Source: a virus. From it: a stretch of 64,000 nucleotides of DNA. A program made the position numbers and the translations under genes. Shown here piece after piece: positions 19,011 to 61,987 of this stretch (within the stretch, counting starts at the first letter, position 1; the number at the start of each line of letters is the position of its first letter). Under the pieces are notes generated by a model that had not been told where the DNA came from, searched no databases, and saw nothing but the letters and a program-made list of their open reading frames with translations. The DNA is taken from IMG/VR virus record IMGVR_UViG_3300045988_174992; one strand, 5' to 3'.

Positions 19011-20135
19011 ATGAAGACATTGTCAATGATAAAGGAGTCATTTGATAACCAACCATTAGGAAATAAAGTTGGTGTAACTAATCATTTGACTCCTGTAGAT
19101 AATATAGTAATAAATGTAAGAAATTTCTTTTCATCTCAACTTTCTATGGTTGTCACAAAGGCAGAAGATAATTTCTCTTTGAAATGTACATCATCATTAT
19201 GGCATTCAGAAGAAGATGTTAGAAATGCTATATATACAAATGTTTGGAATGACAGAACTTCTCTTTTTAGTTATGTATCAATGCAAGGTTTGTCATGTAT
19301 AAAGATTGTTCCTGTTGGAGAAGAATATTTCTTGTATTTTTGTCCTTCAGATATTAAACAATCTTATGGATATAATAGTCCATGTGATAATGGATCATGT
19401 GAATCATTACCAAAGATTGCTTGTCATGAACAAAAACAATTGCATCTTGGTGATATAGAATATAATCAGTTTGGTGAGATAAAAGAAGATGCATGGCAAC
19501 CTGATCAAGAAATTGAAGATATAACTAAGAAGGATATAAGACAATTGTTGGGTGGCAATGATAAAGTAAAAGCTGCAAAGGCATTTGCTGAAATTCTTAA
19601 ACAGAATATGAGAATGCCGGATAATTATTATATAACCGCAGTTCGAGATGAAGATGGAAATGAATCAGTTGCTTTGCGTTACAAACATGATGTAAGAAAA
19701 CCGTTTGGTAAGACAGCTACAGTTACAAAAACTCTTGTAAATATCTATGGTCTAGGTGATAATGGTATCTGGGTAAATGATGCTGATAATCCAAATGGAA
19801 TGGATCAAGAACTGAAAGGAGTTATTGATGATATGCTTGGATTCATTGGCGTAAGAAGAACTGGTGATGCTTGTTGTTTTACTATAGCTGAAGATCCAAG
19901 TACTACAGATGATTTGAAATCTGATCCTAATAATTCAGATAATAAAGATGAGAATAATGATAACAATGAAGAAAATAACAAAGACCAAGATACTGAACAA
20001 AAGAATAAAGATGATAATGGACAAGGTATCAATACACCTCAAAGAACTGACAAACCATCACAAGTAGCTGATAATCAAGCAGATAATTCCATATCTAATT
20101 CAGGAATTATGAGAACAGATGGTTCCAGTATGTAA
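19011..20135 (+). CDS. hypothetical protein with CTS-like N-terminus and acidic low-complexity tail
   Basis: MKTLSMIKESF... at the N-terminus. C-terminus reads DNKDENNDNNEENNKDQDTEQKNKDDNG. Confidence 0.6.
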   Translation: MKTLSMIKESFDNQPLGNKVGVTNHLTPVDNIVINVRNFFSSQLSMVVTKAEDNFSLKCTSSLWHSEEDVRNAIYTNVWNDRTSLFSYVSMQGLSCIKIVPVGEEYFLYFCPSDIKQSYGYNSPCDNGSCESLPKIACHEQKQLHLGDIEYNQFGEIKEDAWQPDQEIEDITKKDIRQLLGGNDKVKAAKAFAEILKQNMRMPDNYYITAVRDEDGNESVALRYKHDVRKPFGKTATVTKTLVNIYGLGDNGIWVNDADNPNGMDQELKGVIDDMLGFIGVRRTGDACCFTIAEDPSTTDDLKSDPNNSDNKDENNDNNEENNKDQDTEQKNKDDNGQGINTPQRTDKPSQVADNQADNSISNSGIMRTDGSSM

Positions 20136-20140
20136 ATACA

Positions 20141-20174
20141 AAAATGGTGAAATTCTTAAGAATTTCACCATTTT
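20141..20174. terminator. bidirectional intrinsic terminator
   Basis: Perfect palindrome aaaatggtgaaattctt|aagaatttcaccatttt between convergent genes. Confidence 0.75.
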
Positions 20175-20189
20175 CTATTTAAACAAATT

Positions 20190-21278
20190 CTAAGCAAGTT
20201 CAAATACCGGGCGTGTATTGCAAATAACTACTCGACCTTTTCGTGTAGTCTTAAATGCATCTTTACCATCCTGAACTTCAAACTCCTTAATCTTAACATT
20301 AATAGGATCACCTGGATGATAATCAAGAAGCTTATTAGGATCTATTGGCATCAAACCTGTAATATTCAAACCATCAAGTTCAATGAATACACCTTGCTTC
20401 TTAGCTGAATTGATGATACCTGTAACATGACCATCTAAAACAGGACGTTCATAAGTAACATTATCATTCTTCTTTGCAAGACGTTCCTTCAACCACAAGT
20501 CATACAAATTCTGATAACCATCAAGCTGAAGCAATCGCTTGCGTGAACCAACAATAGACTTCTCAATACATCCAGTAGCATAATCATGCTTGAAGTCAAC
20601 TACCTTCTGTGGAATAATATCAATATCTTGATTTACCCACTTATCAAAGTCCTTTTCAATATTCAATACAATCTGTGAACCAGGAATGAATACTGAATTA
20701 ACATACTCCTTACCAGTAAGTTCAACCAATGGATCAATATTGACATGAGCGATAAATCCACCTTTTACTACTTCATCAATATGAACTGAAATAGGTGTTT
20801 CCTTCTGAATATCATTCTCAATCTGATGCATCCAATAACGGAAATAACCATTAGAAACAGATACAATGTAAGTATTGTCTTTCTTCTCACGTACTTCAAA
20901 CATCAACTGGTTATTATGAGTCATGAGATAGTTACGAATTGCATCAATGCAAGAATTGAAATTCTCCTTACAAATAAGCTCTTCCTTAACACCAGGAATA
21001 GTGAATGTCAAAACATTCTTGTCAAACTCTTTAACTTCACCAAGATAAAGCTGACCAACTTCAATGTTGGTAACTGTATTCATTGCCTTGTCCTTCTTTG
21101 TATCTTCAGACAATTCAATACCATAAGTCTTTGCAAACGCTTTAGCAATAGACATTGTTGCAAATGCTCGTGAATTGAACTTAATTCGATCCTTGTCGTT
21201 TGTAAACATTGAATTCAAAATGTCATTCTCATCTACTCTAGCACCAATGAGATTTTTTGTTTTTGTTTCTTTACTCAT
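20190..21278 (-). CDS. multi-S1-domain (OB-fold) RNA-binding protein, ribosomal protein S1-like
   Basis: Third repeat LDGHVTGIINSAKKQGVFIELDGLNITGLMPIDPNKLLDYHPGDPINVKIKEFEV fits G..V.G.V....G.FV.l....GL.......pGd.i.VkI. Two weaker repeats lie upstream. Confidence 0.55.
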   Translation of the reverse strand: MSKETKTKNLIGARVDENDILNSMFTNDKDRIKFNSRAFATMSIAKAFAKTYGIELSEDTKKDKAMNTVTNIEVGQLYLGEVKEFDKNVLTFTIPGVKEELICKENFNSCIDAIRNYLMTHNNQLMFEVREKKDNTYIVSVSNGYFRYWMHQIENDIQKETPISVHIDEVVKGGFIAHVNIDPLVELTGKEYVNSVFIPGSQIVLNIEKDFDKWVNQDIDIIPQKVVDFKHDYATGCIEKSIVGSRKRLLQLDGYQNLYDLWLKERLAKKNDNVTYERPVLDGHVTGIINSAKKQGVFIELDGLNITGLMPIDPNKLLDYHPGDPINVKIKEFEVQDGKDAFKTTRKGRVVICNTRPVFELA

Positions 21279-21466
21279 TAAAAAGATTTAAAATTTAAAG
21301 GGTTAATAAATAATTTAAGTACAGCATTAACTTTAGTTCTTGAATAGAACTGAAAGTGATATTCATTAATTACTTGTACATATTTAATATAGTATTTGAT
21401 TATATGAAAGTTCAGTAATATTATGTTAATGATTGTTAAATCAACTAAGACAAATTAAGAGACAAG

Positions 21467-21766
21467 CTAATCTGTATTCTTCAACAAAGTTTCATCATCA
21501 CCAGGTCGATATCCATTACCATATCTATCTTTACAAGTAATGCATTTACCAGTTTCATCCCATACCCATCCATCAACAGGTCCTTCTGAAAAGAATACTT
21601 TACCATGTAATTGGTTTGGAATTTCTTTATAATCTACTGAATCTATTTTTACTTCATACCCAGACTTTGTAATAACCGGTTTATCATTATTGATCCAGTC
21701 CATATCCAATTTATCTGGATTAGACTGGATCATTTTTTCTTCTAATAATTTCGATAGTGTTTTCAT
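21467..21766 (-). CDS. hypothetical protein with CTS-like N-terminus
   Basis: MKTLSKLLEEKM... Confidence 0.55.
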   Translation of the reverse strand: MKTLSKLLEEKMIQSNPDKLDMDWINNDKPVITKSGYEVKIDSVDYKEIPNQLHGKVFFSEGPVDGWVWDETGKCITCKDRYGNGYRPGDDETLLKNTD

Positions 21767-21800
21767 ATTTAAAAATTGGTTTAAACCAATTTAGACTACA

Positions 21801-22559: not shown

Positions 22560-22584
22560 AATAGTTCTACTTTCATAATTTATA

Positions 22585-23079: not shown

Positions 23080-23090
23080 TTTAATAAATT

Positions 23091-23843: not shown

Positions 23844-23876
23844 ATTACTCTTTATTTTATTTGTTAATTAATACAA

Positions 23877-24518: not shown

Positions 24519-26411
24519 ATGAAAAGAAAAACTAATCTATTTTATAAATCAGCAAGTCAAGATTCTAGTTTCTTAACTTTCTCTAACTATACAGAATCTT
24601 TGACAGCTAATTTGATGTCTACTGATAACAAGATATATCCTTCTACTTTCTTATGTATCAGTATGCCAAAGCTTAATTCAAGGGATTTTGCAGTAGAATC
24701 TTACAATGAGTGGGAAGAAACTATATTAGATACAAAGAATGTATCTTATACACTTAAGACAAATGTATTTGAAAATTTTGTAATCGAAGATAGTACAAAC
24801 ATAAATAAGATATATGTTGATGATCTTGGAACTGAATATAAAGCTGGTACATTACTTAAAGAAAGTCAAGTTGAATTCTTAATGTCTACAACTATTTCTA
24901 AGACAATATTGATAACATATAGAAATAATACTAAGCATACTAAGCTTTCTGAAAAGTCAAACAATATAAATTCTCCTTATTCTATTACTATAGAAAAAGT
25001 TTTGCTTGACTATAAAGATGATCCAACATTTATCAACAAAAAAGATGAATTGAGTACATTCATTTGGAATAAGCAACAATTGATAAACAAGTTAGTAACT
25101 TACTATGAGAATAAGCTAGCTTCTTTGAGAGATTTTTGTGTAGATAAAGACATGAATCAAGAATCTGTATTGCTTCCATTGAATTACTTATTAGAAACTT
25201 TACTGTCATTTGATCCATCTATTAAGATAAACTATGTAGGTGATATTACAGAGCAAGATTGGAATGGAACATTTTCTGACACTATTTGTGTAGTTGATAC
25301 CAGATCATTCAAATCTGGTACTATAGTAAGTGACAATAACTATGCAATGTCTTTAGCACCAGTTGATGGTGATGATACTAAAGAAAATCCATTGAACAAT
25401 TATGATAGTGAAAGATATTTGCATGGTTGGTTCACAACAAAATCTGAATATATAGAAGAATTAGATTTTGATAAAGATGAAAAGAATACAGTTTCTATAA
25501 ATCCTGTTGCTACTAACAATCTATATACTAATCTATATAGTAAGCTCAGTACAGAAGAACAGATAAAATTCAAAAGAACTCACAATATATCTACTAGTGA
25601 TACCGATGATTATAATACTTATATCATGATGGTACCAGAAGCAGATAAACAAATTCCAGAATACGTAAAGACTTTAGAAGATATAATAGAAGCATCTGAA
25701 ATAAAAGAAGAATATATAGGTCCACATTATGTAGAAGATTTGAAACCAGAATATGACAATTATGAAAATGGAACACATTATTATGAATTGACTTCACCTT
25801 TAAAAGAAATATCTTTTACAACTCATAATGATGTAAAAGAATGGACCGAAGTATCATTCAACTTACTTATCCCATTGTTTGACTTAGTAGATATGAACTA
25901 CAATACAAATTCTACTAATGTTGAATCTTCAGATCATTTGAATTTAACTAATGAAGATGAAGACAAAGAAATGTGTGTTAAGAATATGCCATTAGGCATT
26001 TGGTTCTCTGGTCCACAATTTGTAACATTAAAGTCTGATTTGTCAACTGGATTTTCTCCATCTTGGTCTTTATCATTATCTAGTCAGTTTAAGCCATTTC
26101 CTACTTCTGACTACATGCCTAGTGAGATAACAAATGATGCTAAGAAAGAAGCTTATTGTACATTTGCACAGATACTTTCTAGACAAAATGAAGTATTGGA
26201 TAAGTTTGTTGATATGTCAAAGATAATGAATAAGCTAAGTGAAAGAGTAACTTCATTGGAATCAGCTGTTGGTTCTGTTTTGACAGCTTACAATCTTGAT
26301 ACATTCAGAACTGATATAATGGATTTCAAAAACCAAATAACATATCAAGTATCTTATCTTGAAGCCTCTATTGAAGGTCTGCAGCTTCAGTGGATTCAAC
26401 GTGAAGGTTAA
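24519..26411 (+). CDS. virion structural protein (unassigned), C-terminal coiled coil
   Basis: 630 aa from ATG 24519 (the track start 24501 is a TTG). First gene of a 21-kb same-strand structural operon. Confidence 0.6.
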   Translation: MKRKTNLFYKSASQDSSFLTFSNYTESLTANLMSTDNKIYPSTFLCISMPKLNSRDFAVESYNEWEETILDTKNVSYTLKTNVFENFVIEDSTNINKIYVDDLGTEYKAGTLLKESQVEFLMSTTISKTILITYRNNTKHTKLSEKSNNINSPYSITIEKVLLDYKDDPTFINKKDELSTFIWNKQQLINKLVTYYENKLASLRDFCVDKDMNQESVLLPLNYLLETLLSFDPSIKINYVGDITEQDWNGTFSDTICVVDTRSFKSGTIVSDNNYAMSLAPVDGDDTKENPLNNYDSERYLHGWFTTKSEYIEELDFDKDEKNTVSINPVATNNLYTNLYSKLSTEEQIKFKRTHNISTSDTDDYNTYIMMVPEADKQIPEYVKTLEDIIEASEIKEEYIGPHYVEDLKPEYDNYENGTHYYELTSPLKEISFTTHNDVKEWTEVSFNLLIPLFDLVDMNYNTNSTNVESSDHLNLTNEDEDKEMCVKNMPLGIWFSGPQFVTLKSDLSTGFSPSWSLSLSSQFKPFPTSDYMPSEITNDAKKEAYCTFAQILSRQNEVLDKFVDMSKIMNKLSERVTSLESAVGSVLTAYNLDTFRTDIMDFKNQITYQVSYLEASIEGLQLQWIQREG

Positions 26412-41128: not shown

Positions 41129-41129
41129 A

Positions 41130-43606: not shown

Positions 43607-44386
43607 ATGCAGAATCTAGTTAACAAAACCACAGAAAAATGGAAACATCCTTGGAATGTTGAGAAATTTGACAATCTATTTGATAGAGATGAAAGATTTT
43701 TCTCAATATTAATAAAGGGTGCTTTATCTTGGCTTACTAGAAATATAGTGTTATATGATAAACCTATCAATCATTTCATATTCAACACTGGTTCTTCATA
43801 TATGTACATAGAAAGCAATGGGTATAGATATAGTTTGAATGAAGTATCAGGAGAAGATCAGATTTATATGAAAATGCCAAGATGTATTGTTGAAATGGAT
43901 AATGTAAGCATACCATTAGAAGAACTTACTCAACCTTATGTTAGGGGTGTTTATGAAAGAATAGTAGGAAATGAAATAGTTGGTATGAATGCAGAAATGA
44001 GACGACTACCATTGGATGTAACATTAAAGTTAAGGTATGTTCTATCTAATTTCAATGAATCAGTAGTACTGTTACAAGAAATAATTGATAAATTAGTATT
44101 TAGAAAATATTTTAATATAACATATCTAGGACAAACAATAAAATGTTCTTTAAATTGGCCAACAGAACAATCTGTGCAAATAAATAAAATAGATATGACT
44201 AGTTCAGAAACTAATCAAAAAACAATAGAATTTTCTCTTAACCTATCAACATCATATCCACAGATTGATGAAAGAACTGAATCTAGAAATGATAGTATAA
44301 TTGGAAATTTCAAACAAGATATTTATTTACATCCAAAATCATTAGATAACAAATCTTCTGATAAAGAATCAATCATAAAAGAATAA
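43607..44386 (+). CDS. structural-module protein (unassigned)
   Basis: 259-aa ORF. Confidence 0.55.
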   Translation: MQNLVNKTTEKWKHPWNVEKFDNLFDRDERFFSILIKGALSWLTRNIVLYDKPINHFIFNTGSSYMYIESNGYRYSLNEVSGEDQIYMKMPRCIVEMDNVSIPLEELTQPYVRGVYERIVGNEIVGMNAEMRRLPLDVTLKLRYVLSNFNESVVLLQEIIDKLVFRKYFNITYLGQTIKCSLNWPTEQSVQINKIDMTSSETNQKTIEFSLNLSTSYPQIDERTESRNDSIIGNFKQDIYLHPKSLDNKSSDKESIIKE

Positions 44387-45562: not shown

Positions 45563-45934
45563 TTATTCTCCTTCTTCTGGATCTTCTTCATTTTCTTCAT
45601 CTTCAGAATCAATAAAATCTGATAATTTACCCAATTGGCCTGCTAATGACTTTACATCATCTTGGTTTGCTTTATCATCATCTTGCATTTTCTGAACATA
45701 TTGTTGAAGTACATCCTGAATAGAATCCAACTTATCTTTGTTAGAATCATTCACCTTAATCTTGATACCACCATCAATCTTTTCTGAATATACAGAATTC
45801 TTATTTGCAAGGTCTTCAATAGATTTGATAGTATCATCCGCATGTTCAAGATCACCAAATTCAAATCTAAGCATCTTTTCATTGCTTTCATTGATATTTA
45901 ATGATTCATTCAATGTTTCTACTAAACTTTTCAT
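45563..45934 (-). CDS. highly acidic small protein with CTS-like N-terminus
   Basis: MKSLVETLNESL... at the N-terminus. C-terminus reads SEDEENEEDPEEGE. Confidence 0.6.
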   Translation of the reverse strand: MKSLVETLNESLNINESNEKMLRFEFGDLEHADDTIKSIEDLANKNSVYSEKIDGGIKIKVNDSNKDKLDSIQDVLQQYVQKMQDDDKANQDDVKSLAGQLGKLSDFIDSEDEENEEDPEEGE

Positions 45935-49653: not shown

Positions 49654-51438
49654 ATGATATTTGGTAACTTAAGTAACGTATTAGAAGGAAATAAGACTAT
49701 ATATGAACAAGCTAATGATATGATGCCTATACAACAAACCCAAATGCAGATAAAAGAACCTGGTCATCTTGCAAAAATTCTGTATAAGCTCAGTCATTAT
49801 GGTATGAACTGGACTTCTGATGTTGTAAAGAACATGAAAGCAGTACCAGCAGACAAGTTGATGCAACCAAAGGATATTGGTGTAATGACTTCAAACTTGT
49901 ATGCTGGTATAATGGATAACTGGAAACAGAAACCAGAAGAAGACAAGCCATTTAGAGAAAAGACTCTTGAACAGAAGAGAGATGTTTTGAGAAAGATGGC
50001 TATGAATCCAGAAATCGAAGATATATTGGATATCATGGCTAATGAATGTATAGTTTATGATGATAATGATGTTTATATTGGAGAACCTTACATTGAACCA
50101 AGTGTACTGCAACAGTTGAATGAGAATCATATAGAAGAGATAAAGAATTGTGTAGATACGAGTTTCTATAAGATATACATGCTTCTTGATTGGAAAAACA
50201 AAGCTTGGGATCAATTCAAAAGATGGTTGATAGATGGAGTAATAGCTTATGAAATTGTATATGACAACATTGAGAATCCACATACAATCATTGGTATTAT
50301 CCCTATAGATCCAGCTACTATTACTCGTGTTATTGATAATGGTATACAATACTGGGTACAGTTTAAAGATGTGATTGGACAAGAACGTATCATGCTTGAT
50401 TCACAAGTAATATATATCAAATATGAAGATAGTGGAGTAATAGACAGACAATCATATCTTGAACGTCTGATTCGTCCATTCAACATATATAGAATCATAG
50501 AACAAGCACAACTTATCTGGACTGTAACTCAAGCAAGCTTCAAGACAATGTTCACCATACCTGTAGCTGGGATGAACAGAGCAAAAGGTATGCAAACTCT
50601 GAACTCTGCTATGGCCAGATATAAAGAAGATATAGACTTCAATACAGAAACTGGTGAACTTAAAGTAAATGGTAGAACTAATCTTCCATTCAATAAAGAA
50701 TATTGGATGCCAGAAAATGAGAATGGAAAACCAGAGATAGAGACACTTGTTGACCAAGGCCCAAGCCTTAATGATAGTGAACAACTTAAGTACTATCTTT
50801 CTAAGCTATATAAGATGTCTAAGATACCAGAAAGCAGATTTGATAAAGAAAATGCTGCTGCTTGGTTTGGAACTGATCCAACTCAAACCCTTCGTGATGA
50901 AATAAATTTTGGTAGATTTGTTGATAGACTTAGAAATGTATTTTCCATGGTAATCATCAAACCTATTCAAATACAAGTTGCTCTTTCAATTCCAGAAATG
51001 AAGAATGACAAGAGAGTATTGGATGCTATCATATTCAGATATAATTCATATAATCAGTTTACTGAGATGATGGATCTTGAAGTTACCAACAAACGTCTTG
51101 AAACAATTGGTATGCTTAAAGATACATTTACTACAACTGATGCTGAAGGAAATGAAGACAGCTATTTCTCTATGAAATTCTTACTTGAAAGATATCTGAA
51201 GATGTCTGATGCTGATTTTGAATATAACCAAAAATGCAAATGGTTAGAGAAGCAAGAAAAGGGTGATGCTGAATCAGAAGAAGAGGAAAATGGTGAAGAA
51301 GAAATGGGTGGAATAGATTCTGGTTCGGAAGATGCAGGAATGGAAGATGATGGATCTGGGGATGCTGGAGGAGATTCAGAAATGATGGGTGATGTACAAC
51401 CTGACAATTCAGCTGAAGGTGGATCAGGAGAAATGTAA
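49654..51438 (+). CDS. portal protein, T4 gp20-like
   Basis: Collinear with my recollection of T4 gp20: [13 protein letters not shown] / [29 protein letters not shown] / [55 protein letters not shown] / [47 protein letters not shown] / DYWLQRRDGK. Acidic C-tail. Confidence 0.75.
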   Translation: [594 protein letters not shown]

Positions 51439-51456: not shown

Positions 51457-51564
51457 ATGAAGTCATTATTAGAATTTATTACAGATAGAGAAAATATTCC
51501 TAAAAGAGATAAAGATATACCTAAAATAGATAAAGAAATAGATAATTTATCAGATGAAGCTTAG
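51457..51564 (+). CDS. 35-aa micro-ORF with T4 capsid-targeting-sequence-like N-terminus
   Basis: MKSLLEFITDRENIPKRDKDIPKIDKEIDNLSDEA, compare T4 CTS MKTYQEFIAE. Directly follows the portal gene, where T4 has small core genes 67/68. Overlaps the next start by 11 nt. Confidence 0.35.
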   Translation: MKSLLEFITDRENIPKRDKDIPKIDKEIDNLSDEA

Positions 51565-52243
51565 TAATTGTGAAATAAGACCAGGAGTTGTAGTTACTGC
51601 TGATGATCCAAAGAAAATGGGTCGTATAAAAGCTGTAGTTCCTGGTTGGTTCAATAATGCCTCTATGCATGAAGAAGATATGTTTTGGATTGCTCCATTT
51701 ACTAGTGGATCAGGATATCAACGTGTCTCTAAATGCATAGAGGGACAAAAAGTATGGATATTGCATGATTCCACAAATGAATATGAATATTATTATGTCA
51801 CAATGTGGGAAACAAACATCAATACTACTGCCGCTCAACAGGATTTTGATTATGATGTATTAGTGTCAAGATCTGGTAAAAGTGTTGGTGCTCAGATGTT
51901 CTATACTGGTAATCAAGGATTTGTAACAAGAATAGGAGAACATGCTCAAACGCAGATAAATCAAGCTGGTGATATAGAAAACAAATCTAATGGTACTGAA
52001 ATATCTATAAGAGGATCAAAAGCATTTGTTGGATTGTCAGAAAAATGTGAAGATCCAATAGTTAGAGGAAATAAATTATATAAGTTATTATCTGATTTGA
52101 AGGCTGGATTAGATGAATTGAATAATGCGGCTAATGGAAATCCTTATACAATAAATTTATGTCCAGCAATACTTAAATGTTCTAAAGCTATATCAGATAC
52201 CATAGATGAAATGAATTCAAAAACATCATTTGTAAGTGAATAA
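51554..52243 (+). CDS. hypothetical protein, N-terminus resembles gpV/gp5 OB-fold spike proteins
   Basis: IRPGVVVTADDPKKMGRIKAVVPGW....MFWIAPF......IEGQKVWILHD fits G.V...D....GR.kV..p....s.W..p.....P..G..V.v. No gp21 protease motifs seen. Confidence 0.3.
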   Translation: MKLSNCEIRPGVVVTADDPKKMGRIKAVVPGWFNNASMHEEDMFWIAPFTSGSGYQRVSKCIEGQKVWILHDSTNEYEYYYVTMWETNINTTAAQQDFDYDVLVSRSGKSVGAQMFYTGNQGFVTRIGEHAQTQINQAGDIENKSNGTEISIRGSKAFVGLSEKCEDPIVRGNKLYKLLSDLKAGLDELNNAANGNPYTINLCPAILKCSKAISDTIDEMNSKTSFVSE

Positions 52244-52246: not shown

Positions 52247-53191
52247 ATGGGTGCAATACCAGGACAAATGCAAGCAAAATGCATTGATTATGGACAGAAT
52301 TTCTTAACAGGACAAGCAACTTCAGTTATTGCTGCTACTGGTATTGATATAGAAGCTGGCAATTTGAAACAGTTGGCAGATGCTGTACAAGACAAGACTA
52401 TGTCTATGGTTTCTGACTTGAAGAATACAGCTACTAAAGAAGTAACTAAAATTGGAAGTCAGATAGGTGGCATGGCTGGTAGCTTAGTTGGTGCTGGATT
52501 ATCTGCTATGCAAGGAGCTTTTCAAACAGCAGATGTTGCTAAGCAAGCGGTTGGAGAACTTACAACGTATGGGGTTCAACTTACTGCTAAAATCGGTACT
52601 AATATAGCAAGTATGATTGCTGCATTTCCTGCACAAGTTACCAAGAAAGCTACTGCTATAGCTGCAGAACAATGTAAAGAAGAACTTCAACAACGATTGA
52701 AAGAAGTGATGGGTACACCAGCAGAAGAGCATGCACAAAAGGAAGCAGAAAAGGAAAAAGAAAACAAAACAAAGAAAGCAATAACTTGGTGTAAGAAAGC
52801 TGTAAAAGATGTCAATGAATTCAAAGATAAGACACTGTCATCTATTCAGAAAGATTGTGAAGATATATCTGCTTTGATGATACAAGGTCCAGGTTGGGTA
52901 AACAATCAGATGAGTGGTGCTATTGATAGTGCTAAAACATATATGTCTGATTATGCCGATGGCAAAATGAAAGATATTCAGAATCATTATGATGAAGCTG
53001 TGAATAATTCTGCTTACGCCGCAGCTACAACAATGAAGAAAAAACTTATAGATCCAACATTAGAAAAAGCTAAAGAACAATTTAATGATCTTGGAACATC
53101 AACAAATAAGACAAAGCAAAAAGCTAAGACAGCTGTTCAAAAACAGTTGTTCAAGCTTGCAGGAAAATTAGGAATATCACCAAATGGCTAA
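52247..53191 (+). CDS. Ala/Gln/Lys-rich coiled-coil protein (scaffold-, internal- or small-terminase-like; unassigned)
   Basis: 314 aa. Translationally coupled to terL through an ATGGCTAA overlap. Confidence 0.5.
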   Translation: MGAIPGQMQAKCIDYGQNFLTGQATSVIAATGIDIEAGNLKQLADAVQDKTMSMVSDLKNTATKEVTKIGSQIGGMAGSLVGAGLSAMQGAFQTADVAKQAVGELTTYGVQLTAKIGTNIASMIAAFPAQVTKKATAIAAEQCKEELQQRLKEVMGTPAEEHAQKEAEKEKENKTKKAITWCKKAVKDVNEFKDKTLSSIQKDCEDISALMIQGPGWVNNQMSGAIDSAKTYMSDYADGKMKDIQNHYDEAVNNSAYAAATTMKKKLIDPTLEKAKEQFNDLGTSTNKTKQKAKTAVQKQLFKLAGKLGISPNG

Positions 53192-55985
53192 AGAATTTGA
53201 ATTTGACCCAGTAAAGAGAGATAAAGGAGGAAAAGAGGCAGAAGCGGTCATCTGGAGCTGCTCAGTACTTGAAAAGGCTGTAGATGCCATGAAGAAGGGT
53301 TTGCCATTGAAAGCAAACCCTTTTATTGGTAAGAATACTAAGTTATTGAAGCCAGATCTGGTCTTCAAGCGTACACAAGAAGAGATAGAAGACTATATGC
53401 ATTGTATGGAAGATCCATTGTACTTTGCTACTAAATGCTATCTTATGACTCCAACTGGTTTGCAACCAGTAATACTTCGTGACTATCAGGAAGATTATAT
53501 GAGGCATCTTCAGAAAAACAGATTCAGTTTGTTCTTGAGTTGCAGACAAAGTGGTAAAACATTTTTAGAAAATACAAATGTGAAATTTTTGTTTACTAAT
53601 TCATTCATAAACAATTATAGCATTAAGTTTGGTAAACAAAAATTTACATATCTCTTTAAGAATTTCAAATATGTAAAAAGTGGATCTGATTATTTGTTTG
53701 AATTGCCTTTTTATGAGTTTCAAAACTTGTTTGATGATACTGTTTACTGGAAACTGAAATACAATCTATATAAGAAAAAGAAATATCATGCAGTAGAAGT
53801 TGTCGACTGGTTAGAATACAATTTTTTATTCCACAAGAAACTTCTTGACAATTACAAAACAACTAAAGAAATAGATATTTCCAATTATGGAATAAAAGTA
53901 TTGACAGATGTTGGATATCAACCAATATCATACATTTACAATACTAAACCATTTGCAATATATAAAGTAATCCTTGAAAATGGATATTCTATAGAATGTG
54001 CAGACAAGCACATGTTGTTTGATGATAATTTGAATATAGTATATGCTGATGAACTTGTTGAAAGTGTTTCTAAAATAATGACAGATAAAGGACCATCTGT
54101 AGTAAAGTCTGTTTCAATATCCAAAGTAAAAGTATCTATGTGTGATGTTTCTGTGGATCATCCTTATCACAGATATTATACTAATGGAATATTAAGTCAC
54201 AACTCAACAACAACAGCTATATTCTGCCTTTGGTCGGTATTGTTCAGAAATGATAGAAATGCGTTGATACTTTCTAAATCTGGTCCAGCTGGACAAGATT
54301 TGATAAAGAAGATAAAAGATATGTACTTGTATCTTCCTTATCATTTGAAGCTTGGTACTTTGAAGTGGAATCAATCAGAAATAGCTTTTGACAACAACTC
54401 TACAATATCTACTGAAGCTTTCTCTCCTACTGCCGGTCTTGGTAAGACAATAAACTTCTTGATACTTGATGAGTTTGCTTGGTGCCCACCTAATGATGTA
54501 GAATTATTCTACAACAACATTCTTCCTACTGTTACTGCAGATACAAGCTCTAATATATGTATCATGTCAACACAGAACGGATTCAATTTGTTCTATAAGC
54601 TATGGCATGCCGCAGAAACAGGAAAGTCTATGTATGCTCCATTTAAAGTAGATTGGTGGCAAGTTCCTCAATGGGATCCAGAAAATCATATTTGGAAGAA
54701 GAGAGATAATGCTTGGAAAACTATGATGGTTGGTGTCTTAGGTTCTGAAGAAGCTTTCTACTACCAATACGGTACTCAATTCTCTGCATCAGATAAATGT
54801 CTTGTATCAAGAGAATGCTTAGGTAAGATAAGAGATTTGACTTATCTGTTTGAGACACCTACAGATGATAGTTGGTATTTCAGCTTACATAAGACAGAAC
54901 TTAAGTTCAAGAAAGATTATGACTTGCATTGGTTGAAGATAGGATGGTTCATCATATTGGTTGACTTAGCAGAAGGTGGTGGCAATGACTTTACAACGTT
55001 CAATATAATAGAAGTAATAGGAAAAGACAAGTTTGAACAAGTAGGATATTGGCATTGCAACACCATAGATTTGGAACAAGCTAGCTTAGAGTTTTGGGTA
55101 TTGTATGGACAGCTATTCAATCCTAATAAGACTATAGTGTCAGTAGAATGGAATACTTATGGGGCTTTATTCTACAACTATCTTAAGAATTTGAATGAAC
55201 CTGAATATATGCCAGAAGCAAGTTGGAGATGGCAAGTAAACCCATTAGGAGAATTTGACTTGGCTAACTTGATAAGATATAAGAAAGGCAGTCAAGAAGA
55301 CAATATTGCTAACTTGAATGGATTCAAAAACAGCAAGACAATTCCTGGAATCAGATTAAGCCATGCTACTAAGATATCTGCATGTGCATTGCTTAAGATG
55401 ATGTTAGAGAAGTTTGATGTCATAATAACAGATTTGCTTACCGTTTCAGAGCTTGAGAATTTTGAAGATAAGAATGGAAATGGCAGCTATGCCGCGGCAT
55501 ACGGACATGATGATTTGATAATGACTTTTGTACAACTTCCACTTCTTAAGAACACTACAAAATATAAAGATTTCATAGAAGAATGGGAGATAGAAATGAA
55601 AGCTACAGGTCAATGGGAACAAATAGAAAAAGAAGAGTCAGAAATGAAGAAACTAGATATGCTTAAGAAGATAGCAGATATGATGGCCAATGTATTGCAG
55701 AAAAGAAAAGAAGAGAAACAAGTAACTGTATCATTGAACAACAGAAATCTACCTACTGCTACTGCTGTAAATTCTTCTGATATATATAGAGAAGCACAAA
55801 GTAATGCAAGTACCAGTATACCTAACATGTATACAATGTACAATACAAGTATGCAACAAGGATTACCATCTATGAATGACTTTTATGGGTCACCTAATGG
55901 ATATGGAAATGAACCAAGCATATATGATATGCCAGGACAATACAACCAAGATCCATTGAGAGCTAGATTCAGACAATTCAACTAA
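53184..55985 (+). CDS. terL: terminase large subunit, T4 gp17-like, interrupted by Hint/intein-like insertion
   Basis: DYQEDYM..LSCRQSGK|..|STTTAIFCLW (T4: RDYQRDML..LSRQLGKTTVVAIFLAH); WNQSEIAFDNNSTI..LILDEFAW (T4: WNKGSIELDNGSSI..IYIDECAF); STQNGFNLFYKLW; YGHDDLIMTFV (T4: GYHDDLVMSLV). Confidence 0.9.
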   Translation: MAKEFEFDPVKRDKGGKEAEAVIWSCSVLEKAVDAMKKGLPLKANPFIGKNTKLLKPDLVFKRTQEEIEDYMHCMEDPLYFATKCYLMTPTGLQPVILRDYQEDYMRHLQKNRFSLFLSCRQSGKTFLENTNVKFLFTNSFINNYSIKFGKQKFTYLFKNFKYVKSGSDYLFELPFYEFQNLFDDTVYWKLKYNLYKKKKYHAVEVVDWLEYNFLFHKKLLDNYKTTKEIDISNYGIKVLTDVGYQPISYIYNTKPFAIYKVILENGYSIECADKHMLFDDNLNIVYADELVESVSKIMTDKGPSVVKSVSISKVKVSMCDVSVDHPYHRYYTNGILSHNSTTTAIFCLWSVLFRNDRNALILSKSGPAGQDLIKKIKDMYLYLPYHLKLGTLKWNQSEIAFDNNSTISTEAFSPTAGLGKTINFLILDEFAWCPPNDVELFYNNILPTVTADTSSNICIMSTQNGFNLFYKLWHAAETGKSMYAPFKVDWWQVPQWDPENHIWKKRDNAWKTMMVGVLGSEEAFYYQYGTQFSASDKCLVSRECLGKIRDLTYLFETPTDDSWYFSLHKTELKFKKDYDLHWLKIGWFIILVDLAEGGGNDFTTFNIIEVIGKDKFEQVGYWHCNTIDLEQASLEFWVLYGQLFNPNKTIVSVEWNTYGALFYNYLKNLNEPEYMPEASWRWQVNPLGEFDLANLIRYKKGSQEDNIANLNGFKNSKTIPGIRLSHATKISACALLKMMLEKFDVIITDLLTVSELENFEDKNGNGSYAAAYGHDDLIMTFVQLPLLKNTTKYKDFIEEWEIEMKATGQWEQIEKEESEMKKLDMLKKIADMMANVLQKRKEEKQVTVSLNNRNLPTATAVNSSDIYREAQSNASTSIPNMYTMYNTSMQQGLPSMNDFYGSPNGYGNEPSIYDMPGQYNQDPLRARFRQFN
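53559..54203 (+). mobile_element. intein-like (Hint domain) insertion in the terL Walker A loop, 215 aa
   Basis: Lies between GK and STTT. Starts TFLENTNV (block A CLxxDTxV with Thr in place of Cys). Block B-like AIYKVILENGYSIECADKHMLF, block F-like MCDVSVDHPYHRYY, block G NGILSHN followed by +1 Ser. Confidence 0.7.
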
Positions 55986-57079: not shown

Positions 57080-57124
57080 TTTGATTGAAATCAAAAGTCT
57101 AAATTGTCTAGCAATTTTTAAATA
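57080..57124 (+). promoter_or_regulatory. twin-hairpin leader plus GCAATTTTTAAATA box, copy B
   Basis: Hairpins TTTGATT-GA-AATCAAA and AAATTG-tctag-CAATTT. See 24446-24493. Confidence 0.55.
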
Positions 57125-57140
57125 GAATATAAAATACCCT

Positions 57141-57992: not shown

Positions 57993-58002
57993 ATATAAAC
58001 AA

Positions 58003-58022
58003 AGAGCATTCTAGAATGCTCT
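58003..58022. terminator. bidirectional intrinsic terminator
   Basis: Stem agagcattc-ta-gaatgctct followed by a T-run. Separates the forward gene from the tRNA block. Confidence 0.7.
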
Positions 58023-58033
58023 TTTCTTTTTAG

Positions 58034-58106
58034 AGCCATTAACCGGGTATGATCCGATAACCTTCTGTTTACAAAACAGATGCTCTACCAATTGAGCTAT
58101 AATGGC
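58034..58106 (-). tRNA. tRNA-Thr(UGU)
   Basis: Acceptor GCCATTA/TAATGGC, D arm GCTC..GAGC, anticodon arm TCTGT[TTTGTAA]ACAGA. Confidence 0.85.
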
Positions 58107-58248
58107 ATATAAAATCAAATATGGCATCAGATGTGCAAACTATCATGACCATATTCTAGTAATACATTGAGCTATCAGGAGTACCCGTAGATTGCACTGA
58201 CACCTCTAACAACTGCCTAGTTAAATGCTAGGTCCTCTCTATTACTTG

Positions 58249-58322
58249 TGGAGATGATGGAGTATGATTCCATATAATCTGTCTTGCAAGGACAGTGCTC
58301 TATCCATTTAAGCTACATCCCC
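58249..58322 (-). tRNA. tRNA-Ala(UGC)
   Basis: Acceptor GGGGATG/CATCTCC with the G3:U70 identity pair. Anticodon arm CTGTC[CTTGCAA]GACAG. Confidence 0.85.
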
Positions 58323-58517
58323 ATTTCTAGTACTTATTCATTGTACTAAAATATATTCTGTAGCGAATTATATGCAGAATAATATTTTATATATGTACAA
58401 TGAAGTAAGGTTGGCAGGTACTAGAACCTTCAAGTGATTAGCTTGACCATATCCATTTTGAGTAGCGTTCAAAATCAAAGATTTATCACGCCGCCTCTAA
58501 ATAATCGTTGCCGTTTG

Positions 58518-58590
58518 CTGGCACCCTGGGACTCGAACCCAGGACCTTGAACTTAACGGGTTCCTGCTCTACCAACTGAGCTAAGCACCA
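58518..58590 (-). tRNA. tRNA-Asn(GUU), atypical (C33, three G:U pairs in acceptor)
   Basis: D arm GCTCAGTTGGTAGAGC, anticodon arm GGAAC[CCGTTAA]GTTCA, T arm CTGGG[TTCGAGT]CCCAG. Confidence 0.65.
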
Positions 58591-58621
58591 ATCAATTCTT
58601 CACAGTGAATTACTCTGTTAG

Positions 58622-58703
58622 TGATGGGTGTGGGAGTCGAACCCACTATTGTACGGCTTATGAGACCGACGTGATTTATAAATATCCGTTTCACTCACCC
58701 ACG
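58622..58703 (-). tRNA. aberrant CAU-anticodon tRNA (Met/Ile2-like) with 16-nt D loop
   Basis: Acceptor CGTGGGT/ACCCATC (C1xC72 mismatch), D stem GTGA/TCAC, loop CTCATAA on a 4-bp stem, T arm GTGGG[TTCGACT]CCCAC. Confidence 0.5.
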
Positions 58704-58719
58704 ATATATAGTTAACTAT

Positions 58720-59745
58720 TTAAATAATAGTATTTTCTTTTAAATATTTCAAGAATTCATTAAATTTTTCTTTAACAAAATTTTTATTTGCCTTCCCCAT
58801 ATCTTTTATAATATAAGGTGTCCAACCACATTCTTCAATTTCTTTTATCTTTATTTTATCCCTATTTTGTGTTTGTTTAACAGAATGTGATTTTGTAATT
58901 TGTTTATAATGCCATGGGCCATTCCATAATACCGCAAATTTTATATCTTCTATTATTATATCTGCATCCCATCCATTAAATATACATTCATTATGTTTAA
59001 TATTATTAAAATATTCTTCACATAATTTACAGAATTCAATTTCATTTTTACTACGTCTTAAATCACCTTGATGTTGTATTCCTTTGCAACCACCATTATG
59101 TAAACCTAACCAACTTTCTTTAGAAAATAATTTACCATTGATATAATGATATCCCTTTAATTTTAATTTTTCAATTTCTTTATTTCGTTTATCTTCTAAT
59201 TCTTTTAATTGGGATAAATTCAATAATTCCCTTTTAATTATTTCTATTTTCTTTGTTAGTTTTTTATATTCATAATATTCATCATCTATTTTATTAGAAT
59301 TATGTACCTTATTTATGTGTTTTGGTTTACATTCATCACACATACAAGTTTTTATTGATGCTCTTGATGATATTGTTATTTCTTTACCACATTCAATGCA
59401 TTTCGCTTGTTTAGTATTTCCTGTAGATAATTTTCCTACATAAGAATGTGAACATTCAAGACTACAAAAATATTTTTTATTTATGTCAAATTTATTTTGT
59501 CTTTCCTTAATTTTAAATTCTTTTCCACAATTAAAACATTTTACATTATATTCTAATAGTGGATTTTTTCTTTGATATGCAATTTGTAATGCTATGCCAG
59601 AATTTTTTGAACATTTAGCAACACGTTCATCAGTTTCATTTGTAAGGCCTGAATTCCACATTAATTTATGGTTTGGATTCATTTTACAATATTTTTCATG
59701 TTGCTTTACATTTTTATATTCTTTATTGCAATATCTACATTCCAT
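58720..59745 (-). CDS. Zn-ribbon-rich protein with C-terminal PD-(D/E)xK (Vsr/DUF559-like) endonuclease module; free-standing homing-endonuclease candidate
   Basis: CRYCNKEY..C, CFNCGKEF..CSLEC and CIECGKEI..CMCDEC ribbons, then RSKNEIEF..WDADIIIEDIKFAVLWNGPWHY..RDKIKIKEIEECGWTPYIIKD. Confidence 0.55.
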   Translation of the reverse strand: MECRYCNKEYKNVKQHEKYCKMNPNHKLMWNSGLTNETDERVAKCSKNSGIALQIAYQRKNPLLEYNVKCFNCGKEFKIKERQNKFDINKKYFCSLECSHSYVGKLSTGNTKQAKCIECGKEITISSRASIKTCMCDECKPKHINKVHNSNKIDDEYYEYKKLTKKIEIIKRELLNLSQLKELEDKRNKEIEKLKLKGYHYINGKLFSKESWLGLHNGGCKGIQHQGDLRRSKNEIEFCKLCEEYFNNIKHNECIFNGWDADIIIEDIKFAVLWNGPWHYKQITKSHSVKQTQNRDKIKIKEIEECGWTPYIIKDMGKANKNFVKEKFNEFLKYLKENTII

Positions 59746-59755
59746 AATTTTAATG

Positions 59756-59784
59756 ATTGTCAGACTACTTGGCAGTCTGACAAT
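59756..59784 (-). other. 11-bp stem-loop 11 nt upstream of the endonuclease start
   Basis: attgtcagact/agtctgacaat with a 7-nt loop. Confidence 0.6.
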
Positions 59785-59960
59785 TTGTATGTTATTTCAA
59801 AGAATTTTCGGGGCCGAGGCATGTCCTTAAGTACCATCGTATGGGACATTTTATCAGTTTCTCCTAATCTTCAACGTGCTATATTATGAGGTAGCGCTAC
59901 TTCTCTTTTCAACGTTCCATGAACTAGTATACTCCCTGGTACGGACTCGATGTTTAATTG

Positions 59961-60034
59961 TACTCCAGGAGGGACTTGAACCCCCGACCACTTGGGTATA
60001 AGCCGAGCACTCTAACCAACTGAGTTACTGGAGT
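59961..60034 (-). tRNA. tRNA-Ile(UAU)
   Basis: Acceptor ACTCCAG/CTGGAGT, D arm ACTC..GAGT, anticodon loop CTTATAC, T loop TTCAAGT. Confidence 0.75.
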
Positions 60035-60045
60035 ATTTATTTATA

Positions 60046-60080
60046 TTAAATATAGAACAACTATATCCAAAATTTCAAAG
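60046..60080 (-). promoter_or_regulatory. -33/-7 promoter-like motif inside the tRNA array
   Basis: ttaaatatagaacaactatatccaaaatttcaaag, immediately upstream of tRNA-Ile(UAU). Confidence 0.5.
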
Positions 60081-60087
60081 AATTTTG

Positions 60088-60161
60088 TAGGTGGTATAGG
60101 ACTTGAATCTATGACCTCTTGCTTATCAGGCAAGCTATCTAACCAACTGATATAACCACCT
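60088..60161 (-). tRNA. tRNA-Ile(GAU)
   Basis: Acceptor AGGTGGT/ACCACCT, anticodon arm CTTGC[CTGATAA]GCAAG. Confidence 0.8.
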
Positions 60162-60167
60162 AAATTG

Positions 60168-60239
60168 TTGGACCACGGAGGTTCGAACTCCGAATGACAG
60201 AACCAAAATCTGTAGTGTTTCCAATTACACCATAGTCCA
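60168..60239 (-). tRNA. tRNA-Gln(UUG)
   Basis: Acceptor TGGACTA/TGGTCCA, anticodon arm ACAGA[TTTTGGT]TCTGT, T arm CGGAG[TTCGAAC]CTCCG. Confidence 0.85.
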
Positions 60240-60248
60240 ATTTATTTG

Positions 60249-60325
60249 CGGAGCATAAGGGACTCGAACCCTTAGTTTTACTAGAGTGACAGTCTAGTTC
60301 CCTTACCAACAGGGCTTAATACTCC
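60249..60325 (-). tRNA. tRNA-Asp(GUC)
   Basis: Acceptor GGAGTAT/ATGCTCC, anticodon arm CTAGA[CTGTCAC]TCTAG, T arm AAGGG[TTCGAGT]CCCTT. Confidence 0.8.
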
Positions 60326-60474
60326 CAATACTGATTAAAGTCTCAGTTAGCTGCACATCAATCTCCTATGTGGCTTTTGCAATAACTTTAGTTGCAAGCA
60401 ACATAAAGCGTTGATTATATCTAAATTGCTCACACATCACTTTGTCATGATTTTCATTTGTTCTTTTGACCCAG

Positions 60475-60557
60475 TGGGCAGAGAGAGATTCGAACTCCCG
60501 AAGGCCGAAGCCATTTGATTTACAGTCAAACCATTTTAACCACTTATCTATCTACCC
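60475..60557 (-). tRNA. tRNA-Tyr(GUA)
   Basis: Acceptor GGGTAGA/TCTGCCC, anticodon arm TTTGA[CTGTAAA]TCAAA, long variable arm TGGCTTCGGCCT. Confidence 0.85.
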
Positions 60558-60568
60558 AATTTTATTAG

Positions 60569-60640
60569 TAGCCGCAGCGAGAATCGAACTCGCCTTGACA
60601 GATCGAAAATCTGTAGTACTAACCACTATACGATACGGCC
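60569..60640 (-). tRNA. tRNA-Glu(UUC)
   Basis: Acceptor GGCCGTA/TGCGGCT, anticodon arm ACAGA[TTTTCGA]TCTGT, T arm GCGAG[TTCGATT]CTCGC. Confidence 0.85.
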
Positions 60641-60762
60641 ATTTAGTACACCCTTATTCCATTCTGCAGCAATGGGAATGTACAAGGTCAGTAGGTTGAC
60701 CAGCCTCCATATTGGTTTATTTAAGAGAACCAACGTTAAACTGTTTTGATTAAACTCTTTCG

Positions 60763-60833
60763 TGCCAGAAGTGAGAATCGAACTCGCCTTGACAGATCGA
60801 AATCTGTAGTACTAACCACTATACGATACTGGC
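60763..60833 (-). pseudogene. degenerate duplicate of tRNA-Glu (6-nt anticodon loop)
   Basis: Body identical to tRNA-Glu (TCGTATAGTGGTTAGTACTACAGA...) but the loop is TTTCGA. Has a C:A mismatch in the T stem and a U:U mismatch in the acceptor. Confidence 0.6.
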
Positions 60834-60843
60834 ATTCAAATTA

Positions 60844-61035
60844 TTATTTTTGACATAATTGCTTGATCTTATTCTTAATTCTTTCTAGTGTTACACTAGA
60901 TTCCTCATTAAATTGATCAGTATCAATAACTGCATCTATTACCATAAGCAATTGCATGAATCTCATATCTGGAAACATCCAGGCAAATTGCTTTGTAATA
61001 TCCAATATCTTAATGTTTGCTTCTAATCTTGTCAT
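60844..61035 (-). CDS. hypothetical small protein
   Basis: 63-aa ORF with promoter-like motif at 61067-61103. Confidence 0.45.
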   Translation of the reverse strand: MTRLEANIKILDITKQFAWMFPDMRFMQLLMVIDAVIDTDQFNEESSVTLERIKNKIKQLCQK

Positions 61036-61066
61036 AATAATTATGTTTTAATGTTTTATAACTTAC

Positions 61067-61103
61067 ATATATAATATAGATTTGATTTATCAGTATTTCA
61101 AAG
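61067..61103 (-). promoter_or_regulatory. -33/-7 promoter-like motif (variant ATATAGAT)
   Basis: tatataatatagatttgatttatcagtatttcaaag. Confidence 0.4.
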
Positions 61104-61158
61104 ATCTTTCAAAAAATTTTCATTTTTTTTTTTGTTTATCAACTTTTTTAAATCAACA

Positions 61159-61186
61159 AAGAGCAACACATTTCTGCATTGCTCTT
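61159..61186 (-). terminator. stem-loop after 61364-61987
   Basis: 8-bp stem aagagcaa/ttgctctt with a 12-nt loop. TTGTTGATTT follows on the reverse strand. Confidence 0.4.
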
Positions 61187-61363
61187 GTCTTGATTGTATT
61201 GTTGAATGTTTAAACAGTGGAGGCATTGTTTAAATTATACACATACAAGACTTGATATGTATAATTATATGTTCTCATTTGTTTAATATTTCTATGTTCA
61301 TTAATTAATTATAATCTATAAATAGATAAATGGTCTATAAATTTTGGTTAAATATTGTTAAAA

Positions 61364-61987
61364 TTACTTTTTTACATTCTTTAATGAATCATCAGAGAAT
61401 ACATATAAGAATTTTGAACCTTTACTTAAATACAAATTAGTACGGAATTGTATACCAGTAATAAGCTTATCATCAACAATACACATAACTGGATATACAT
61501 TAACAACTGCTGTACCTTCTCCTGTCTTTACATACATATCCTTTTCAAGAGTAATAATTTCTTGATTGAATATGGCATCCATCTTTTTAAGTTCTCTATC
61601 CATTTCATCAGTCAAACCCAACCTTTTAAGTTCTTTATTTGCATATAATACATTCTTAATGGTAAGTTTCTTATTTTCAATAGATGCATCTTGATCTTTA
61701 AGATATTTATTAATATTGATTAGGTCAACAAATCCACGTTGGCCAACACTATAAAGATCTGCTTTATTCTGGATGTCATCGTAAGCTTGTCTTGCATTAT
61801 CATCATTTACTGCATAATAAGGACCATCACCAATAACCTTCTTACAAGCAGCCTCAAGTTCTTTATGCCGTTTCTTAGAAAAACCTACTTTTGTAAACAA
61901 ATCCTTCAAAGTATCAAATTCTTCTGCATTCTTGATAATATAAGATGAATCAAGTGATTCATAAATAGATTGTACTAATGATTTCAT
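61364..61987 (-). CDS. hypothetical protein with CTS-like N-terminus
   Basis: MKSLVQSIYESL..., with 8 of the first 12 residues identical to 45563-45934. Confidence 0.6.
   Translation of the reverse strand: MKSLVQSIYESLDSSYIIKNAEEFDTLKDLFTKVGFSKKRHKELEAACKKVIGDGPYYAVNDDNARQAYDDIQNKADLYSVGQRGFVDLININKYLKDQDASIENKKLTIKNVLYANKELKRLGLTDEMDRELKKMDAIFNQEIITLEKDMYVKTGEGTAVVNVYPVMCIVDDKLITGIQFRTNLYLSKGSKFLYVFSDDSLKNVKK

Follow-up and report, generated by a model that had tools for sequence, protein, structure and literature searches.

The internal proteins IPI, IPII and IPIII of bacteriophage T4 carry a capsid-targeting sequence (CTS), reportedly described by Mullaney and Black in 1996. The CTS concept, together with variable internal proteins that share only the CTS, is textbook knowledge for T-even phages (PMC3012670, PMC9026906). 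Mutagenesis of the T4 CTS has indicated that targeting depends on positions 4 and 7 and processing on positions 8 and 10, and that a protein with Asp at position 10 is still targeted but no longer cleaved (PMC9026906). In phiKZ, 201phi2-1 and SPN3US, many inner-head proteins are likewise cut after Glu by a gp21-related protease, and their propeptides are thought to be prohead-targeting; however, these propeptides are mostly longer than 100 residues, carry the motif A/S/G-x-E and have no 10-residue tag in common (PMC5694885). Here, we analyzed a 64-kb stretch of the IMG/VR virus record IMGVR_UViG_3300045988_174992 (64,000 nucleotides, hereafter the window), which is part of a 276,731-bp contig (ERZ919512 k127_125124) from a human gut metagenome. 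Six open reading frames (ORFs) of the window share a short N-terminus, referred to below as the tag, which is likely to be a T4-type capsid-targeting propeptide that sends proteins into the prohead and is then cut off by an S77 protease. The five intact genes and one gene remnant that carry it would mark proteins that are probably packaged in the capsid and some of which are perhaps injected.

The tagged ORFs, named below by the position of their start codon, are as follows (scores are those of a position weight matrix, PWM).

19011..20135, + strand: tagged gene, 374 aa, tag MKTLSMIKE/S (9-residue type, as in phage PAU), seen in the sequence
21467..21766, - strand: tagged gene, 99 aa, tag MKTLSKLLE/E, 8/9 tag residues identical to those of PAU gp132 and gp146 (MKTLSKL[YF]E)
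45563..45934, - strand: tagged gene, 123 aa, tag MKSLVETLNE/S, pI 4.17, PWM 19.7 bits
47916..48644, + strand: tagged gene, 242 aa, tag MKNLSQYLNE/A, PWM 23.0 bits, the best of the window
51457..51564, + strand: 35-aa gene remnant directly after the portal gene, tag MKSLLEFITD, recognized from relatives L012 and L014-L018 and from BLAST of both ends
61364..61987, - strand: tagged gene, 207 aa, tag MKSLVQSIYE/S, PWM 21.1 bits

The six N-termini listed in a preliminary description of this DNA were exact, and in 6/6 ORFs the tag begins at the first ATG. That description had also placed (L/I)-x-E within residues 7-10 in five of the six, which was confirmed: the site lies at residues 8-10 in 45934, 47916 and 61987 and at residues 7-9 in 19011 (I-K-E) and 21766 (L-L-E). 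The sixth ORF, 51457, has L-L-E at residues 4-6 and, in addition, I-T-D at residues 8-10. Two classes of tag are present in the window, namely four 10-residue tags of T4 type (PWM 18-23 bits) and two 9-residue tags of PAU type (19011 and 21766). The ORFs at 41130-41648 (MKTINNSSEIYK) and 43607-44386 (MQNLVNKTTEKW) were considered as further tagged genes and rejected, as both have no [LI]-x-E and a low PWM score. A T4-type late promoter, TATAAATA, was sought upstream of the tagged genes and found only at 47916, and such a match is uninformative in DNA of 31% GC.

Five of the six tagged ORFs are intact genes. The 35-aa ORF at 51457, counted earlier as a sixth tagged protein, is a fusion in which the 5' end of a tagged gene of 68-102 aa, rich in repeats, is joined to the final eight codons (IDNLSDEA*) of another tagged gene, 244 aa long. 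Intact copies of the two parent genes follow the portal gene in genomes with 98-99% identical portals, where they start MKSLLEYITED... and MKSLVEFITEA.... As judged from these relatives, the ORF is not an intact gene but what a deletion has left of two tagged genes.

The frequency of the tag was compared with chance and with base composition. Starts of the form MK[STN]L occur in 6 of ~65 called ORFs, and the true fraction is higher, several of the small ORFs being tRNA genes. When all six frames were considered, the same four residues were found at 7 of the 1447 ATGs followed by 14 open codons; the extended tag patterns were confined to the starts of the tagged genes among these 1447 windows, and the strict form never occurred internally in the ORFs of the window. 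In column-preserving shuffles of the real N-termini, the loose pattern was expected in 0.04 genes and observed in 5, and the strict pattern was expected in 0.0005 genes and observed in 4. The observed counts were reached in 0/20,000 shuffles, and the scan against shuffled N-termini proposed in the preliminary description thus gave an enrichment far above chance. A regular expression for the tag had no match in 41 kb each of LR756500 and Lak-B5, relatives that are more AT-rich than the window, and in 50 kb of T4 it matched only ipII and ipIII. Codons at equivalent tag positions also vary (AGT or TCA for Ser; TTA, TTG, CTT, CTG or CTA for Leu), indicating that conservation acts on the peptide and not on the DNA. 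Together, the shuffles, the AT-rich relatives and the codon variety exclude AT bias (the codon-usage explanation named at the outset as potentially refuting), translation signals and recent copying of DNA. The tag is a real, selected feature, and we regard this as nearly certain.

The resemblance to T4 extends beyond the protease site. In the T4 record (NC_000866), ipII and ipIII start MKTYQEFIAE/A, as previously stated for all three internal proteins; ipI, however, reads MKTFKEFTST. Beside these stand MKSLVEFITE/A in close relatives of the window phage and MKSLLEFITD in the window itself (51457), the latter being the closest of the six to MKTYQEFIAE. A weight matrix was built from 58 tags of the gut clade, with the window excluded, and scored on 71 ORFs from the 60-110 kb part of T4. 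The highest scores were those of ipIII and ipII (9.6 bits each), followed by ipI (-1.5), gp24 (-2.4) and gp67 (-7.2), against a median of -25. These five are T4 proteins with short N-propeptides that are removed by gp21 (PMC5694885, PMC9026906). Moreover, the most conserved positions of the gut tag are 4, 7, 8 and 10, the same ones that were singled out by mutagenesis in T4 (PMC9026906).

In both T4 and the gut phages, an N-terminal 10-residue tag (M-K-[TS]-x-x-E-[FY]-I-x-E/A in T4) ending in [LI]-x-E for a gp21-family protease is found on small, variable proteins that have nothing else in common, and both have a gene for a gp20-type portal; genes for a gp23-type major capsid protein (MCP) and an S77 protease, as in T4, are present in gut genomes with portals nearly identical to that of the window. 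In contrast, position 4 is Tyr or Phe in T4 and Leu or Ile in the gut phages; the gut and PAU lineage has two tag lengths, a 10-mer and a 9-mer, the latter dominant in PAU; and the repertoire amounts to three proteins in T4 as against 23 genes in PAU and 6 in the 64-kb window. The gut cargos are also for the most part acidic and not basic, the phages probably infect Bacteroidota, and their portal is only distantly related to that of T4. The T4 propeptides of gp24 (MAKINELLRE/S) and gp67 (MEGLIEAIKS) are ranked by the gut-tag matrix right after the internal proteins. The acidic tail of gp67 resembles that of 45934, and gp67 and gp68 lie directly after the portal gene, as do the post-portal tagged genes of the gut phages; however, the mature parts of gp24, gp67 and gp68, which in T4 are vertex and prohead-core proteins cut by gp21, have no sequence homology to the window proteins.

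When the portal was used as a tblastn query, the nearest cultured phages were Sphingomonas (Sphingobacterium) phage PAU (33%), Tenacibaculum phage PTm1 (34.5%) and Chryseobacterium phage MA9V, followed by the Prevotella Lak megaphages. All of these relatives are jumbo phages, mostly of Bacteroidota, and this relationship suggests that the host of the window phage is probably also a member of Bacteroidota. PAU, whose portal is 33% identical, is a jumbo phage of the same T4-superfamily lineage and carries tags such as MKTLSKLYE/A, to be compared with MKTLSKLLE/E and MKTLSMIKE/S in the window. Twenty-three annotated PAU genes start MK[TSG][LI]xxL[YF]E[AS], and 13 of them cluster around the portal-protease-scaffold-MCP module. 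The tagged set contains the scaffold gp152 and four of the five genes labelled 'internal capsid protein' in the GenBank record JQ362498 (gp142, gp154, gp199 and gp270; Fisher p = 1.4e-4). As this label is attached to only 4/23 tagged genes and also to one untagged gene (gp70), it was evidently not derived from the tag. PAU mostly uses the 9-residue tag, and no homology was detected between the window cargos and the mature PAU proteins by phmmer or with a hidden Markov model (HMM) of the 19011 family. No description of the tag in PAU-like or gut jumbo phages turned up in a literature search. Three tagged PAU genes, gp38 (25070-25465), gp39 (25530-26063) and gp116 (92020-92538), lie among genes of replication and nucleotide metabolism, and their tags end in Asp (MKTLVETITD, MKSLYNMFLD and MKTLYSTLLD, respectively).

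The tag was then followed in an IMG/VR sample of 42 portal loci (37-99% identity) and MCP loci. In the gut clade (81 loci, portal 50-99% identical), 83-94 of 1591 unique ORFs were tagged. They form 46 families that are unrelated by BLAST beyond residue 12, have a median length of 158 aa and lie near portal or capsid genes, with up to 7 tagged genes per ~19 kb in relatives. The consensus of the clade is M-K-[SNT]-[LI]-x-[EQ]-[YFS]-[IL]-x-[ED]-[SA], and the residue after the site is mostly S or A, as in T4. In distant environmental relatives (L089, L103, L104, L114, L115, L123, L124, L127, L128 and L131), whose MCPs are 38-43% identical to that of a clade member, we observed another recurrent start, MKNL[LM][ST]F[DA]EF[VI]N, often in two genes per locus and with F-x-E at residues 7-9. 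This start may represent a tag of the same kind, in a third form.

A gp21-family prohead protease, which the preliminary description proposed to look for elsewhere in the genome, was sought in the window, its flanks and relatives. No counterpart of the PAU or PTm1 protease, scaffold or MCP was detected in the window and its 10-kb flanks, and PAU gp151, used in a word-index search, retrieved only phages closely related to PAU. Starting from the MCPs of intermediate relatives, we reached the MCP loci of six genomes in IMG/VR, all with portals 98-99% identical to that of the window. In 6/6 of these genomes, a protein of 513-525 aa is encoded directly upstream of a Gp23-type MCP (PF07068, E 2e-29). 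Its N-terminal part is a Peptidase_S77 domain (PF03420; E 6.7e-11; 42.5 bits, cut-off 27), a family to which PAU gp151 also belongs, and the His and Ser aligned with H85 and S140 of T4 gp21, which we take to be the catalytic residues, are invariant. The protease was thus absent from the window and its flanks and present in all six near-identical genomes, where the protease-MCP module lies ~45 kb from the portal, outside the span of the window.

The protease domain is followed by F-E-S-L-N-E/S, which contains the same L-N-E/S as the tag of 45934. The C-terminal half of the protein consists of ~8 tandem PEVQKWIVE[QN]YS repeats, each with an I-V-E site, and this repeat domain is likely to be a built-in scaffold; such an arrangement is what one would expect of a scaffold that is cleaved into short fragments. 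Examples of the fusion are found at L135 8334-9911 (IMGVR_UViG_3300045988_167932) and L145 10001-11542, and variants range from 489 to 549 aa. More than 2500 homologs of the protease (E <= 1e-10), as near-identical variants, were retrieved from public metagenomes, which makes this a very common phage of the human gut. The N-termini of the MCPs also have conserved [LI]-x-E sites. The MCP of PAU is N-terminally processed from 585 to 520 aa, as determined by N-terminal sequencing, with a loss of ~65 residues (PMC5646251).

Beyond the tag, the mature parts of the six proteins are unrelated to each other (pairwise BLAST E > 0.3), as had been claimed, and searches of PHROG, Pfam and PDB sequences with all six gave nothing usable from which a cargo function could be assigned; in particular, the 21766 protein had no match in Pfam and PHROG, and the 47916 protein none in Pfam, PHROG and PDB sequences. 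The 19011 gene lies 1.5 kb downstream of the head-closure and DNA-end-protector genes. Its protein consists of the tag, a variable linker, a conserved core beginning at GVTNHLTPV, and a disordered tail rich in acidic residues and Asn. Among 139 homologs of 29-96% identity, the tag is kept (with variants such as MKTLTQLRE, MKTFSKYINE and MKRFSEFME), the linker varies and GVTNHLTPV is invariant. An AlphaFold2 model based on a 54-sequence alignment has a confident fold at residues 26-300 and disorder at residues 304-368, and the tag appears as a short helix of low confidence; a Foldseek search with this model found no match in the PDB and BFVD. Because the protein is conserved across 139 homologs, the family looks more like a structural or core component of the head than like a variable effector.

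The cargos of 45934, 47916 and 61987 vary between strains. Orthologs of 45934 with 28-30% identity have kept the tag with a different sequence (MKSLLQFIKEA and MKTLVEYIKEA), and the 45934 protein itself carries a further site, I-N-E/S, at residues 14-16 and ends in an acidic C-terminal tail. In some near-identical genomes (L013, L014 and L017, about 7500-9000), the 47916 gene is a tandem duplicate with copies that are 70% identical, one of which starts MQSLTQYLNEAL, with Gln in place of Lys2. The 61987 protein is paralogous to the 244-aa tagged protein encoded after the portal in close relatives (BLAST E 2e-8), and its homolog in L019 (E 9e-32, 37% identical) starts MKSLTQYIAES. It gave a weak HhH-GPD match (20 bits, below the cut-off), and a single-sequence AlphaFold2 model of it was unusable (pLDDT, the per-residue confidence, 31.8). 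The 61987 gene sits within a cluster of tRNA genes; T4 ipI likewise adjoins the T4 tRNA cluster. Hypervariability of the tagged genes was considered and rejected, as identities of 93-95% compare with 98-99% for the portal and other genes are equally variable. Since divergence is only modest, the variability of the cargos is argued instead from the gain, loss and duplication of tagged genes between near-identical genomes.

The 45934 protein is the most acidic of the window, and four of the five intact tagged proteins have a pI below 5, compared with 26% of the proteins overall. The acidity noted in the preliminary description is thus real. Its interpretation in terms of DNA mimics or anti-restriction proteins found no support, as no recognizable fold or family of either kind was detected in the mature parts (PHROG, Pfam and PDB searches, and Foldseek for the 19011 model). 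The acidic T4 core protein gp67, which has an acidic tail and is degraded, would be an equally good analogy, and acidity alone is not diagnostic.

We consider it likely, on the combined evidence of the sequences, that the shared N-terminus acts as the T4 CTS does; the mechanism that we infer comprises core binding, cleavage, packaging and ejection. The first 9-10 residues, M-K-[STN]-[LI]-x-[EQ]-[YFS]-[IL]-x-[ED], would align hydrophobic positions 4, 7/8 and 12 on a helix, and this helix would bind the scaffolding core during prohead assembly, so that the attached protein is enclosed in the head. The gp21-family serine protease, which in the gut lineage is fused to a repeat-rich scaffold domain, would then cut after the Glu of [LI]-x-E and free the mature protein inside the capsid. 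Unrelated proteins would have acquired the same tag, some of them being putative conserved head components (the 19011 family). The strain-variable members (45934, 47916, 61987 and the post-portal genes) would be candidates for delivery with the DNA, or alternatively acidic core proteins that are degraded and expelled. The original proposal is supported in its central part, every computational test having backed a T4-like tag that ends in a protease site and marks candidate head-packaged proteins. The 19011 protein, though, belongs to a conserved family and looks less like a variable effector. That most of the cargos are injected counter-defence effectors seems to us rather doubtful.

Several observations weigh against this mechanism. 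The search for a prohead protease on the contig of the window itself, covering the window and ~10 kb beyond, was negative. The nearest site in the PAU MCP, L-M-E64, predicts a mature protein of 521 aa, off by one from the 520 reported. LR756500, Lak-B5 and PTm1 have no tag within 9-20 kb of the portal, and ~20% of the tags of the gut clade end in Asp, which blocks processing in T4. Finally, four of the five intact tagged proteins are acidic, whereas the T4 internal proteins are described as basic (PMC9026906). Because of the untagged relatives, the Asp ends and the different start in distant relatives, the evolutionary history of the tag is patchy.

The main competing explanation is that the tag does target the prohead but that the tagged proteins are accessories of the core or scaffold, like T4 gp67, gp68 and gp22, which would be chopped and expelled before DNA packaging and would not serve as delivered effectors. 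The PAU scaffold gp152 carries the tag, the 19011 family is conserved across its clade like a structural component, and 45934 is small and, besides its extreme acidity and gp67-like tail, contains the additional I-N-E/S site. On the other hand, the annotation of four tagged PAU proteins as internal proteins of the virion capsid implies retention in the head, and 46 diverse families with gain, loss and duplication resemble the variable internal proteins of T4 (PMC3012670) more than a fixed scaffold. We regard this explanation as unlikely for the set as a whole; it probably holds for some members only, notably 45934.

Two further explanations fit the data poorly. The conserved N-terminus could be a helix with another role, such as docking or oligomerization, a chaperone or secretion tag, or a signal for localization or degradation, and it could be said in favor of this that the tag was modelled only as a short low-confidence helix and that some tagged genes are distant from head genes (21766, and 61987 among the tRNA genes). 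Such a role, however, would require coincidental mimicry of the T4 CTS including the positions of the protease site, a second coincidence with the virion annotations of PAU and a third with the clustering around portal, protease and MCP; the tag also has neither the hydrophobic core nor the lipobox of a signal peptide. We consider it very improbable. A nucleotide-level or translational constraint at gene starts, or mere chance, might be suspected in a genome of ~31% GC in which MK is a common start (14/65 ORFs) and the gene starts are preceded by an A-rich stretch with no Shine-Dalgarno motif. Yet synonymous codons vary freely, the shuffles predict at most 0.04 genes, the two more AT-rich relatives gave no match, and conservation reaches Glu10 and the small residue 11 and survives in orthologs of 30% identity. 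This last explanation is effectively refuted.

A T4-type targeting propeptide in these phages would extend a known mechanism to a distant lineage of gut phages and would not be a new mechanism; what stands out is the evolutionary distance, the size of the repertoire and the abundance in human gut data. If the tag works as in T4, a 10-residue signal for targeting and cleavage has persisted in branches of the T4 superfamily that lie very far apart. It would then provide a cheap handle, readable from genomes, on the capsid-packaged and possibly injected proteins of an extremely common gut phage. The tagged proteins would be prime candidates for early host-takeover or anti-defence functions in Bacteroidota, and the tag could be used to load such phages with foreign proteins, an application for which T4 has already served. 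A broader view is that the T4 CTS is an ancient portable tag, conserved between T-even phages and the PAU-like jumbo phages of Bacteroidota and hugely expanded in the latter, which by itself would list the packaged and injected repertoire of uncultured gut phages, made up mostly of strain-variable counter-defence effectors; we hold this only tentatively and think it less probable than not in so general a form.

The other head genes of the window are as follows.

16368..17477, + strand: head-closure (gp4-like) and DNA-end-protector (gp2-like) genes (phrog_218, E 1.4e-30; phrog_429, E 7.8e-20)
49654..51438, + strand: T4 gp20-type portal gene (PF07230 Portal_T4, E 2.6e-77; phrog_213)
53184..55985, + strand: T4-type large terminase gene, 933 aa (weak Terminase_6N/6C and Intein_splicing Pfam matches; alignment with the PAU terminase, E 3e-45)

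The Portal_T4 match and the alignment with the PAU terminase bear out the statement that the phage has T4-type portal and terminase genes. Relative to the PAU terminase, the window terminase has an insertion of ~214 aa (53562-54203) located exactly in the Walker A loop (...RQSGK / TFLEN...ILSHN / STTTAIF). The insertion is intein-like in that it ends in His-Asn followed by Ser, as is typical of inteins; the Intein_splicing match is weak, and its first residue is Thr (or Phe), versus the canonical Cys or Ser. Between the portal and the terminase, a 229-aa protein (51554-52243, + strand) gave a weak match to a gp5/VgrG-type OB domain (Phage_base_V, E 0.0014, below the cut-off), an unexpected location for a baseplate-spike-like domain.

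Seventeen tRNA genes are clustered on the - strand at 58033-63950, one of them with an odd anticodon loop, and several small called ORFs in this cluster are tRNA genes read as ORFs. The same region contains a possibly mobile 341-aa ORF (MECRYCNKEYKNVKQH..., 58720-59745, - strand), which had no match in a PHROG search and is intact, truncated or missing depending on the genome among those with 98-99% identical portals. Finally, two distinct proteins of 1319 aa, both starting MAI and with no Pfam match, are encoded at 7469-11428 (+ strand) of the window and at L135 12981-16940, just after the MCP gene in close relatives, and these may be paralogous large structural proteins.

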